DNA of 64,000 nucleotides from Pyrinomonadaceae bacterium (GTDB taxonomy: Bacteria; Acidobacteriota; Blastocatellia; Pyrinomonadales; Pyrinomonadaceae). Both the position numbers and the translations under genes were made by a program. How positions within the stretch are numbered: the stretch's first letter is position 1; each line of letters starts with the position of its first letter. The notes beneath the pieces were generated by a model that saw only the letters and a program-made list of their open reading frames with translations, did not search any database and was not told where the DNA came from. Location of the stretch: positions 23,248 through 87,247 of the forward strand of contig DASWRC010000188.1 in assembly GCA_036403375.1 (NCBI GenBank), written 5' to 3'. This document shows positions 40,027 through 41,891 of the stretch, in pieces.

Positions 40027-40872
40027 ATGCTGAAAACTGTCCTTTTTTCTAAACTGAAAAGTATTTTATTGTTTCTGCTCGCCGCCGTTTTGCTCAGCGC
40101 TTGCAGCGCGCGCAAGGTGCAGACCGTCAAGGTCGAAGCGGAAGCCAACCAGATAATCGACGTTTTGGGCGAAAACGGTATCCGCGCGAAAAAAAATGAA
40201 GTCGGCGAGGGCGACCGGAAAACTTTTGAAATCCTGGTCAACGGCGACGATGAATCCGTCGCGGCGGCGATTCAATTGATGGAAGACCATTGTTTGGGGC
40301 GTCCCGACCCGCCCGAACCTGAAGGCGGCGCGGTCATTACTTCGATGGAAGTCGAGCGCGCGCGCGAACAGCGGCGAATAAAAATGAACATCGAATCGCA
40401 GCTCCGCAAACTTCCGGGCGTGACCTGCGTCGACGTTAATTTCGTGCCGCCGCAAGACCGCTCGCTCGCCATAAACCCGTACCCTTCGACCGCTTCCGTG
40501 CTGATAAATTACAAAACGCCGGCTTTCGGTCAAAGTAAAGAAGATATTGCCAATCTCGTCGCGCGCAGCGTTCCGGCTTTGCAGCCCGAAAACGTCAGCG
40601 TGATGCTTGCCGCGAAGCCCCTGCGACCGCTTCCCGATAATAAAATCGCCTACAATTTTACGCGCATCGCGCTCGTTTCGGGCATCGGTCTGGCGACGAT
40701 TCTGGCGTTTGTCTCGGTGGTTTTCGTTTTGCGGAAAAAACGACGCCAGCCGCCCGAAGAGCCGGAAGAATTCGAAAATTTCGACGAAGAAAAACGCTCC
40801 AAAACCGCGCTGCTCGACGAACGCTACGGTTTTGACGACGATGACGAAGAGGACGAGGAAAATCTGCCCTGA
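40027..40872 (+). CDS. sctJ: Type III secretion inner-membrane ring lipoprotein SctJ (YscJ/PrgK family) with long acidic cytoplasmic tail
   Basis: 281 aa. Lipobox LLSAC is followed by EAEANQIIDVLGENGIRAKK, as in YscJ. A C-terminal TM segment (IALVSGIGLATILAFVSVVFVL) is followed by a ~45-aa acidic tail (…EEPEEFENFDEE…GFDDDDEEDEENLP). Confidence 0.85.
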   Translation: MLKTVLFSKLKSILLFLLAAVLLSACSARKVQTVKVEAEANQIIDVLGENGIRAKKNEVGEGDRKTFEILVNGDDESVAAAIQLMEDHCLGRPDPPEPEGGAVITSMEVERAREQRRIKMNIESQLRKLPGVTCVDVNFVPPQDRSLAINPYPSTASVLINYKTPAFGQSKEDIANLVARSVPALQPENVSVMLAAKPLRPLPDNKIAYNFTRIALVSGIGLATILAFVSVVFVLRKKRRQPPEEPEEFENFDEEKRSKTALLDERYGFDDDDEEDEENLP

Positions 40873-40880
40873 GCTCGACA

Positions 40881-41891
40881 ATGAAAGCGATTTCACAAGC
40901 CGAAAAAGCCGATATTCTGCTGGCGCTCGCGATGGCGTTCGAGAATAATTTCGCGTGGACTGAAAACCGCGCGGCTGCCGGAACGGCGGGCGAATTGGTG
41001 GAAAAATCTTTCGGCGCATTAAACGCCGAGACGCTGGAAGCGCTGCGTGCCCGCGCCGGATTGGTCGATGATTTGAGCAGGGAAGCGCGCGAAAACTGGC
41101 GCGAAACGCGGCTTGAAAAGATTCGCCGTCGCGGGCAGCGGACGCGGCTCGACGAAAACATCAACCCGTCGCACGTCGTCGAGGTGCTGGCGCGCGAGCC
41201 GGAAATCCTTCAAACGTTGATTTTAAAAAATCTGCCGCCGGATTTGAGCCGCCGCATCGCGCTTTATCTCGGCTTAAATTTTGTGCCCGAAGAACGAGCG
41301 GCAAAAAATGCGCCGTCGATTAACGAAGAGCTTGTCGCGCTTGTCCGGCAGCGGTTTTTGTCGAATTTCGTCGCGCTCGAAGACCTCTTTGAGCCGGATG
41401 AATTGGACCGATTTTCGGTTGACCGGCTCGAAAATTTTATCCGGCATCTCGGGCTGCGCGAGATTGCGACCGCGTGTCGCGGCATCAATTCAAAAGAAAC
41501 GCTTGCCGCCTTTTTGAATCGTTTCGACGAGGAAGACGCGCGCGAAATCGCGCAATATATTACCGAACTCGATAAGATTCGCCCGTTTTGGGTGGCGCAA
41601 GCCGACGCGCTTGTGCGCCGCAGCTGGAGCGCCGATTTGCCGCCCGCGCGGGTTATCAAAAAAATCGGTTTTAAGCTGCTGGCGAGCGTTTTTCTTCTGC
41701 GCGACGAAACGAAATGCGGATACGCGGCGCAGAAACTTTCGATTCGCGACTTGAAAAACTGGCAGCGACTCGTCAGGGTCAGCCGGAGGAAATATCTTGC
41801 GGCTGACGAGGAAGAGCGCCGGCGGCTCGAAAAACGCTGCCGCATCATCGAGCGTTTAGCGGTCAAATTCTACCAAACGGGAACGTTATAA
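40881..41891 (+). CDS. FliG-like protein occupying the sctK / fliG position
   Basis: 336 aa, which is FliG-sized, and sits between sctJ and sctL. SHVVEVLAREPEILQTLILKNLPPDLSRRIALYLG resembles the FliG middle domain. LEDLFEPD...VDRLENFIRHLGLREIATACRGINSKETLAAFLNRFDEEDAREIAQYI parallels the FliG C-domain (FENL..vDDRsIQrLLqEv..esL..ALKGa...L.ekFl.NMSqRaA). Confidence 0.45.
   Translation: MKAISQAEKADILLALAMAFENNFAWTENRAAAGTAGELVEKSFGALNAETLEALRARAGLVDDLSREARENWRETRLEKIRRRGQRTRLDENINPSHVVEVLAREPEILQTLILKNLPPDLSRRIALYLGLNFVPEERAAKNAPSINEELVALVRQRFLSNFVALEDLFEPDELDRFSVDRLENFIRHLGLREIATACRGINSKETLAAFLNRFDEEDAREIAQYITELDKIRPFWVAQADALVRRSWSADLPPARVIKKIGFKLLASVFLLRDETKCGYAAQKLSIRDLKNWQRLVRVSRRKYLAADEEERRRLEKRCRIIERLAVKFYQTGTL

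Follow-up and report, generated by a model that had tools for sequence, protein, structure and literature searches.

A FliG-like protein in the sctK slot of a non-flagellar-type secretion locus from a Pyrinomonadaceae bacterium

What joins the cytoplasmic platform of a T3SS (type III secretion system) with its membrane ring when the gene that follows the ring lipoprotein resembles fliG? The question is raised by a stretch of 64,000 nt from a Pyrinomonadaceae bacterium (GCA_036403375.1, contig DASWRC010000188.1, positions 23,248 to 87,247, forward strand), referred to here as the window and numbered from its first letter, in which an open reading frame (ORF) for an SctJ-type inner-membrane ring lipoprotein (40027..40872, +, 281 aa) is followed by one for a protein of 336 aa (40881..41891, +), placed where injectisome loci carry sctK. 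Both ORFs are found where the first-pass annotation had located them; it had drawn from them the idea that an acidic cytoplasmic tail of the lipoprotein docks a FliG-like protein, as FliF does in the flagellum. The matter bears on a debated issue, namely the origin of the injectisome sorting platform from the flagellar C-ring and, with it, the origin of SctK, for which, to our knowledge, no flagellar homologue is recognised. Comparisons of sequence profiles and of a predicted structure strongly support the identification of the 336-aa protein as a diverged, full-length FliG homologue with N, M and C domains, and the adaptor role discussed for it below would tie this homologue to the SctJ tail on one side and to a FliM-like partner on the other.

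FliG homology, conservation and gene order of the 336-aa protein

The 336-aa gene is closely set between its neighbours: the 8-nt spacer that had been noted behind sctJ is present (junction ...aat ctg ccc TGA gctcgaca ATG aaa...), and its stop stands 1 nt ahead of the next ATG (41893, sctL), two spacings that indicate an operon-like packing of these genes. The assignment to FliG comes from family profiles. When a profile of 48 diverse members was aligned by hhalign with one of 12 canonical FliG sequences (E. coli plus plasmid and chromid records), the local alignment reached a probability of 96.1% (E 3.4e-9, residues 64-334 vs 84-319) and the global alignment 98.1% (E 6.3e-13, residues 1-336 vs 1-321), the match being collinear in the order N-M-C over the whole protein. 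In a profile search of the PDB with the same 48 members, FliG chains alone passed 0.001 (3usw, 7.4e-6; 3usy, 1.5e-5; 3hjl, 2.6e-5), and all nine matches below 0.014 were FliG chains. The AlphaFold2 model is all-helical, with a predicted local distance difference test score (pLDDT) of 84, and its six top Foldseek matches in the PDB are FliG; their E-values are weak (0.03-0.25) and their global template-modelling (TM) scores low, as may be expected for a flexible multi-domain protein. Pfam FliG_M is matched at E<=0.1 by 28 of the 30 close members, and in distant family members FliG_M scores up to 37 bits and, behind it, FliG_C up to 41.5 bits, both over their Pfam cut-offs. The first-pass annotation had described two FliG-like segments and proposed a profile or Foldseek comparison of 40881..41891 with FliG structures; FliG was indeed the top match and the model all-helical, and the segments are real and significant with family profiles, weak as they are in the single sequence (FliG_M E=0.0068), while the profile alignment carries the likeness beyond them to the whole length of the protein.

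The individual domains can be placed along the gene, with approximate limits (all on the + strand). A FliG_N-like region (40881..41156) carries the N-terminal SQAEKADILLALA, which aligns with the FliG_N signature EKAAILLLxLG. It is followed by FliG_M (41166..41375), where NPSHVVEVLAREPEILQTLILKNLP aligns with the EHPQ helix; at the motif itself REPE stands against EHPQ, the H and the Q not being kept, whereas E106 shows no variation in 48/48 diverse members and P107 hardly any in the close clade. The helix-MC region (41376..41477) holds an insertion of about 29 aa that follows the M domain, and ARM_C (41478..41630) contains the most conserved block of the family, RGINSKETLAAFLNRF, aligned with GGxxxAAEILNxL of canonical ARM_C (here GxxxxxLAAFLNRF). 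The last ~85 residues form the C-terminal helical subdomain (41631..41888). A different partition, in which ARM_C was missing and a novel C-terminal extension of 84 aa took its place, was suggested by the Pfam FliG_C match at residues 171-252 and was dropped as the main reading after the collinear full-length fit, in which LAAFLNRF corresponds to AAEILNxL. That Pfam placement is explained by alternative registers shifted by one internal armadillo (ARM) repeat and, because such registers exist, residue-level statements on the C-terminal half of the protein are provisional.

Several observations weigh against the identification as a full-length FliG. Taken alone, the window protein lies under the Pfam FliG_M cut-off (E=0.0068; 17 bits vs 25) and has no match to the NCBIfam FliG model, and the internal ARM repeats allow two alternative hhalign registers (61% and 11%). 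The FliG_N assignment is suggestive, being individually sub-significant, and draws on the global profile alignment, on the N-terminal EKxxILLxL signature and on a search of the PDB with an N-domain profile, whose second match, 5tdy_B (T. maritima FliG_N of the FliF-FliG complex), is collinear at E=0.088. Searches that started from less than the diverse family were also negative: a single-sequence phmmer search of the PDB gave nothing useful, BLASTP against E. coli FliG was not significant (E=0.077), the close-clade profile alone against the PDB was not significant (FliF-FliG fusion 8z4d, E=0.76), and hhalign against the single E. coli FliG sequence gave an uninformative probability of 2.9%.

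The protein has 133 close relatives, the named ones from Pyrinomonadaceae or Acidobacteriota metagenome-assembled genomes, and nine of them carry the automatic JGI annotation 'flagellar motor switch protein FliG'. To one close homologue JGI gives the plainly erroneous name 'OHCU decarboxylase', while others are called FliG or hypothetical protein. A scan with one genome per species yielded 22 loci, all from Pyrinomonadaceae or Acidobacteriota and at 37-75% identity; when 1.84 billion cluster representatives were searched with a profile, the family grew to 256 members (50%-identity clusters), 113 of them at E<=1e-30 and down to 16% identity, and invariant residues are kept among members whose identity to the window protein is 16-60%. 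A second homologue search with a broad alignment returned the same close clade only.

Gene order is kept together with sequence. Related loci retain the order FHA-SctV-SctJ-X-SctL-SctN, in which FHA stands for an SctD-like protein with an FHA domain and X for the FliG-like protein, and its sctJ-X-sctL-sctN part holds for the window and for all related loci that have sufficient sequence. Distant members with readable context adjoin a short YscJ-type gene and lie upstream of FliH/SctL and ATPase genes, and a 'Deltaproteobacteria bacterium' lineage shows a flagellar-style series: FliG-like, FliH, FliI, FliJ, FliK, FliM, FliN, FliO, FliP, FliQ, FliR. The reference orders are fliF-fliG-fliH-fliI in E. 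coli and sctJ-hrpB4(sctK)-sctL-sctN in Ralstonia and Burkholderia and, since both coincide with sctJ-X-sctL-sctN, FliG and SctK can be regarded as positional equivalents. In one locus, L032 (7806..11023), the FliG-like gene comes directly after sctV, with an FHA gene upstream and sctJ not adjacent.

The SctJ tail and the FHA protein as candidate anchors

The lipoprotein in front of the FliG-like gene is of the SctJ type: NCBIfam SctJ is its best match (86.9 bits vs 20.3 for FliF), under the equivalog cut-off of 161.95, and Pfam YscJ_FliF (1.5e-14) spans residues 37-193. It has a lipobox, LLSAC (residues 22-26, 40090..40104), and a single C-terminal transmembrane (TM) segment (residues 217-235, about 40675..40731), after which comes the tail RKKRR...EENLP (40732..40869), with 19 D+E and 9 K+R, five of the nine basic residues belonging to the stop-transfer sequence RKKRR. 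The first-pass description of a YscJ-type lipoprotein with a TM helix and an acidic tail is therefore confirmed, the tail measuring 46 aa. Such a tail is present in 22/22 related Pyrinomonadaceae loci, always with a fixed basic start, a linker that differs in both length and sequence, and then a conserved motif that the alignment of the 22 SctJ homologues places at 40807..40845 (+) as ALLDERYGFDDDD; the tail consensus is (T)xLL(D/N)ExY(D)FD(D/E)n...NLP, one subclade has the variant SLLDEGDEFDEDIKFP and, in the tail part of the fused alignment, L27 is invariant and L28 nearly so. From its sequence pattern ALLDERYGFDDDD appears to be a short docking-type motif set behind a variable acidic linker. 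In seven other lineages the SctJ protein beside the FliG-like gene likewise has a tail, 34-69 aa long and net acidic in five of the seven, and a [W/L]L[DE][DE]E motif similar to that of the window tail occurs in the distant lineages L029 and L035. It had been assumed in the first-pass annotation that injectisome SctJ is almost tail-less, which does not hold for the canonical Hrp2-type SctJ of Ralstonia and Burkholderia, where the tail has 29-35 aa; these tails are basic or Gly/Ala-rich, however, so that acidity and motif, more than the mere presence of a tail, would be the distinctive traits here.

The FliG-like protein differs from canonical FliG in its charge. It has a net charge of +6, where E. 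coli FliG has -20, and the linker between the N and M domains has a mean charge of +3.3 in the family and of -1.9 in canonical FliG. The residues of the E. coli FliG torque helix that contact the MotA stator are K264, R281, D288, D289 and R297. In the collinear register K264 corresponds to L272, R281 to R289 (variable in the family), D288 to R296 and D289 to L297, and in the alternative, Pfam-derived register the torque residues fall on R200, E218, Q225 and Y226; the acidic pair D288/D289 is absent in both registers, and the other stator-facing charges are not conserved. On the side of the FliM-like partner, the SctQ-like protein (52472..53902, +), a fusion of a FliM-middle and a FliN-type C-terminal domain (Pfam FliMN_C 2.4e-15, FliM 1.3e-05; NCBIfam SctQ 80.4 vs FliM 57.5 bits), carries LGGKG, a GGXG motif, at residues 164-168, within a FliM-type motif, IDSMLGGKG...R.LS.VE, that is conserved in several lineages. 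According to Soto et al. (PMC9907115), the SpaO N-domain is similar to the middle domain of FliM, the part in contact with FliG.

A reading with slightly better than even chances, in the light of these traits, is that of a static FliG-derived adaptor, whose M domain would hold the FliM-like domain of the SctQ-like protein and whose N-terminal part would be anchored to the ring by the acidic tail of SctJ. Such a system would have kept cytoplasmic flagellar parts that were lost or replaced in classical injectisomes. A static role would be the most likely one for a protein without torque charges, given that the charged residues that receive stator torque are gone. On the platform side the E-P remnant of EHPQR in the M domain would face the GGXG-bearing, FliM-like domain; on the membrane side the N-terminal part would fasten the cytoplasmic platform (SctQ, SctL, SctN) to the ring. 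The best candidate for the ring-side anchor is the acidic, disordered SctJ tail, by reason of its co-occurrence with FliG-like genes, its charge complementarity and the FliF-FliG precedent; through the conserved LLDExYxFDD motif it may contact the FliG-like protein at the N-domain and N-M linker, which are unusually basic. In function this contact would be the analogue of that of the FliF C-terminus on FliG_N, the sequence being different and the binding probably more electrostatic.

The FliF-FliG type of contact that the first-pass annotation thought retained thus stands as regards its two partners, the FliG homologue and the conserved acidic tail, and finds less support in the interface. No resemblance is seen between the tail and the C-terminal end by which E. 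coli FliF binds FliG (BLASTP E=22), the tail sequence is not conserved between distant lineages, and in an AlphaFold2 cis-fusion of tail and FliG-like protein the tail remained undocked with a pLDDT of 32-42, a weak negative, as the run had neither alignment depth for the tail nor a control. All three points speak against docking by the tail.

The main competitor for the anchoring role, one that does not figure in the first-pass annotation, is the SctD-like protein encoded two genes upstream (36676..37716, +; Pfam FHA 3.1e-09, and Yop-YscD_cpl 1.3e-05, under the family cut-off). Its N-terminal domain is of the FHA/YscD-cytoplasmic type; a middle region follows, and the protein ends at a C-terminal TM helix, the only one it has, without periplasmic ring-building domains. 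It could be a proto-SctD or a reduced SctD. By eye, the phosphothreonine-binding residues of its FHA domain seem to be replaced (GN for GR, APEQ for SxxH), which would give it the degenerate, non-phosphopeptide-binding look of SctD domains. The idea that the Thr-x-L-L of the SctJ tail is a phosphothreonine ligand for this domain was dropped, given that the Thr is absent in 6/21 tails and that the FHA domain, again by eye, has no canonical phosphothreonine-binding Arg and Ser.

As injectisomes use an SctK-SctD contact, the FHA protein is a serious candidate for an alternative or additional anchor of the FliG-like protein. It may simply add a second, injectisome-style anchor to that provided by the SctJ tail. 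It is also possible, although less probable than anchoring by the tail, that the FliG-like protein sits on the FHA domain as SctK sits on SctD and that the tail is otherwise used, as a spacer, as an assembly or regulatory element, or in a contact with SctV, SctL or another protein. The FHA gene keeps its place upstream of sctV in 18 related loci as well as in distant lineages, which favours this possibility, as do the undocked tail of the AlphaFold2 fusion, the divergence of tail sequences between lineages and the arrangement in L032, a locus that, if tail-less, would offer a natural test of the need for the tail. Against it stand the deltaproteobacterial-type locus L024, which has no FHA gene within 10 kb and yet a tailed SctJ and a FliG-like gene, the strong conservation of the tail motif in Pyrinomonadaceae, and the charge shift of the FliG-like protein, which suits an acidic partner.

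The secretion gene set and its relation to flagella and injectisomes

The remaining core genes point to a secretion system of the non-flagellar type. Upstream of sctJ lies the gene for the export gate SctV (37801..40005, +; Pfam FHIPEP 4.7e-197), of non-flagellar type by its score of 702.9 bits with NCBIfam hrcV/SctV, over the cut-off, vs 571.8 with FlhA; downstream of the FliG-like gene come SctL, the FliH-type stator protein (41893..42549, +; Pfam FliH 2.4e-22; NCBIfam SctL TIGR02499, 82 bits, over the cut-off), and the ATPase SctN (42581..43885, +). A second group contains SctU (50716..51792, +; Pfam Bac_export_2 1.7e-117), the SctQ-like protein, a FliO-like protein (53979..54416, +; Pfam FliO 6.9e-12) directly upstream of sctR, SctR (54416..55171, +; Pfam FliP 2.6e-70), SctS (55258..55527, +; Pfam Bac_export_3 1.7e-29) and SctT (55623..56477, +; Pfam Bac_export_1 2.4e-61). 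On the opposite strand a block at 27709..31495 (-) encodes, by Pfam match, a FliK/SctP-like ruler (27709..28413), a TPR protein (28429..29832), an FGE-sulfatase-domain protein (29851..30948) and SctO/FliJ (31007..31495), and its genes recur in loci L031 and L033; a sigma factor and TPR chaperone-like proteins also lie within the T3SS cluster. With NCBIfam, SctV, SctR, SctL, SctJ and SctQ score higher on the Sct than on the flagellar models, and near-ties are seen for SctN (643.3 bits, over the cut-off, vs 629.6 with FliI clade 2), SctU (353.2 vs 351.6 with FlhB) and SctT (158 vs 166), several core proteins being slightly under the equivalog cut-offs.

The Pfam scan covered about 67 ORFs of the 64-kb window, among them nearly all with at least 150 aa and several that are shorter. 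Among these there was no match to the secretin family (Pfam Secretin) and none to rod, hook, flagellin or stator (Mot) families, and no window ORF reached a match to the needle family. The flagellar-type parts in the window are the FliK-like ruler and the FliO, FliM/N-like and FliG-like proteins only. The NCBIfam scores, together with the absence of secretin, rod, hook, flagellin and stator matches in the window, suggest that the cluster is of the non-flagellar kind and yet close to the flagellar root; by injectisome standards it is incomplete, at least within the window. FliO is usually taken as flagellum-specific. FliO-like genes were also seen in the related loci L024, L031 and L033.

An incomplete gene set could also belong to a decaying flagellar or T3SS remnant, in which the FliG-like gene and the tail would now be functionless, and the want of a secretin and of a clear needle, rod, hook or stator gene in the window, with the slightly low equivalog scores of several core proteins, would be in keeping with it. 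This explanation is nonetheless very improbable: all ORFs are intact and tightly packed, with spacers of 8 and 1 nt, the order is kept in the 22 species-level genomes at 37-75% identity, and the family, with its 256 clusters, shows residues that are invariant among diverse members. Moreover, a comparable secretin-less system, the Myxococcus T3SS*, is functional in prey lysis (PMC10849154).

Hardly more credible is a 336-aa protein that still receives torque as the rotor part of a rotating, flagellum-like machine, as its full-length FliG architecture and its FliM-like, FliN-like and FliO-like partners could suggest; the stator-facing charges are unconserved in any alignment register, MotA/MotB, rod, hook and filament genes were not found in the window, and SctV, SctR, SctJ and SctL score as the non-flagellar type. 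The loss of the torque charges, as read from the alignments, fits a window without stator genes. The equally slim chance that the FliG likeness is a generic armadillo-repeat resemblance and the protein an ordinary fast-evolving SctK, to which the non-significant BLASTP result (E=0.077) and the weak Foldseek E-values and low TM-scores might lend colour, is met by the collinear full-length alignment at 96-98% probability, by the PDB search in which FliG chains alone pass 0.001, by the FliG motifs that are kept (E-P for EHPQ, GxxxxxLAAFLNRF for GGxxxAAEILNxL) and by the want of any HrpB4 or SctK likeness described below.

The proposed static adaptor, held by the SctJ tail, would share features with both the flagellar switch and the injectisome platform. 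In comparison with the docking of the FliF C-terminus on FliG_N and with the FliG-FliM switch (PDB 5TDY, 4FHR and the Salmonella C-ring structures), the order of ring protein, FliG, FliH and ATPase is the same, the FliG homologue is of full length, with an E-P remnant that would face a GGXG-containing FliM-like domain, and the ring protein has, like FliF, a cytoplasmic C-terminal extension. It differs from the two-TM FliF in being a short SctJ-type lipoprotein with one TM helix, and the acidic, probably disordered tail has no sequence similarity to the two-helix C-terminus of FliF. Unlike the strongly acidic flagellar FliG, the window protein is net basic, has lost the torque charges and contains the ~29-aa insertion after the M domain; unlike in a flagellum, stator, rod, hook and filament genes are not found nearby.

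Compared with SctK of injectisomes (YscK / OrgA / MxiK / PscK / HrpB4), which connects SctD and SctQ, the FliG-like protein occupies the same slot between sctJ and sctL, an SctD-like FHA protein is present, and by analogy the expected role would be that of a membrane-proximal adaptor of the sorting platform. In sequence the two are unlike: the FliG-like protein is ~110-135 aa longer than HrpB4 (336 vs 201-224 aa) and clearly alignable to FliG, the SctD-like protein lacks the periplasmic ring of injectisome SctD, and two HrpB4 sequences gave an hhalign probability <0.1% with the family and negative hmmsearch scores. Pfam YscK was matched by 1/30 close members, at 0.0075, and by 0/48 diverse members at <=0.01, and SctK chains appeared neither in the PDB profile search nor among the 50 best Foldseek matches. 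SctK has been listed as 'FliG (?)' (Abrusci et al. 2014, PMC4045390). The descent of SctK from FliG stays a hypothesis, since neither this family nor canonical FliG resembles HrpB4 or Pfam YscK.

Non-flagellar T3SS (NF-T3SS) were reported only from Chlamydiae, Proteobacteria and Verrucomicrobia, and the early-branching, secretin-less systems of Myxococcales were described as being without FliG (Abby & Rocha 2012, PMC3459982); the Myxococcus T3SS*, needle-less and secretin-less, is required for prey lysis (Thiery et al. 2022, reviewed in PMC10849154). Judged from literature descriptions only, the window locus resembles these Myxococcales systems in being non-flagellar and secretin-less, in its occurrence in a soil bacterium and in its inner-rod-like protein; it shares a large-ring (SctD-type) gene with the 'long' Myxococcales locus and has, as the T3SS* does, cell-wall-degrading enzymes near the cluster, which would fit an antibacterial role. 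It differs in being acidobacterial and in having FliG-like, FliM-like and FliO-like genes. A non-exhaustive literature search found no FliG homologue in a non-flagellar T3SS and no T3SS in Pyrinomonadaceae, so that an acidobacterial, flagellum-proximal NF-T3SS that retains FliG appears to be new. The range of NF-type T3SS would thereby be extended to Acidobacteriota. This is a dominant phylum in soil.

The value of the locus is mainly evolutionary and mechanistic. A recognisable FliG occupies the sctK slot, its presumed partner has a FliM-type GGXG motif, a FliO is present, SctJ has a tail and the SctD-like protein is without a ring, and the locus offers a concrete system for a direct test of the positional homology of FliG and SctK and of the switch from FliF-tail to SctD anchoring. 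A more far-reaching interpretation, tentative and rather doubtful at present, is that a stage between the C-ring of flagella and the sorting platform of injectisomes still lives on in this lineage, with a FliG-derived adaptor tethered both by the SctJ tail and by a proto-SctD FHA protein that has not yet acquired its ring, and holding a SctQ of the FliM/FliN type. If so, injectisome SctK would be a FliG descendant degraded beyond recognition, and the whole machine might serve antibacterial or predatory secretion in the manner of the Myxococcus T3SS*.

Genes around the core cluster

Several neighbours of the core genes may be related to the use of the system. Beside the T3SS sigma factor is a protein of 640 aa (32679..34601, +) whose C-terminal part is a bacterial CdiA-CT RNase A toxin domain, and cell-wall enzymes lie around the cluster: a protein with three PG_binding_1 domains and an M15-like domain (48690..50582, +), an SLT lytic transglycosylase (56756..57892, -; Pfam SLT 1.5e-15), an L,D-transpeptidase (7668..9209, -) and an M23 peptidase (9342..10094, -). 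PG-binding or LysM proteins are also found in the related loci L034 and L035. By analogy with the Myxococcus T3SS*, the toxin domain and the cell-wall enzymes hint at an antibacterial or predatory use.

Two small proteins recall rod or needle components. The protein of 192 aa encoded next to the transglycosylase (57983..58561, -), SctI/needle-family-like and ending in ...LLALQARLYQVGQHIEVMSKVVDQMAGGIKTVLNTNV, is 46% identical (E 2.5e-41) to an L033 protein that has a faint T3SS_needle_F match; itself under the family threshold and among the ORFs that reach no needle-family match, it may be a subunit of the inner rod or of the needle family. A Gly/Gln-rich ORF of 154 aa at 35666..36130 (-), conserved in 13 loci and likewise under the family threshold, ends in ...SNLLKTRHDSEMSAVNNIKS, which by eye has the look of a needle C-terminus.

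Among the larger ORFs, one of 742 aa (43963..46191, -), directly downstream of sctN on the opposite strand, has no Pfam match and is conserved in at least eight related loci, a 735-aa ORF standing at the same place in L034; its product may be structural, an effector or a translocator. An ORF of 216 aa (51809..52459, +), set between sctU and the sctQ-like gene, has counterparts at the same position in L007, L008, L009 and L012; in L031 and L034 its place is taken by ORFs of 217 and 224 aa. The 216-aa ORF was considered as a possible SctK and set aside, as no informative Pfam or PDB match was obtained, and is a candidate gatekeeper, ruler or adaptor.

An FGE-sulfatase (formylglycine-generating-enzyme-like) protein lies inside the T3SS cluster, beside sctO or the sigma factor, in three lineages (the window; L031, 1..619; L033, 7362..8261), an unexpected companion for a secretion system. 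Farther upstream, an ORF of 2497 aa (11950..19443, -) gave TPR matches only, and next to it are a VIT/VWA protein (19454..21781) and then proteins of the beta-propeller sensor kinase type.

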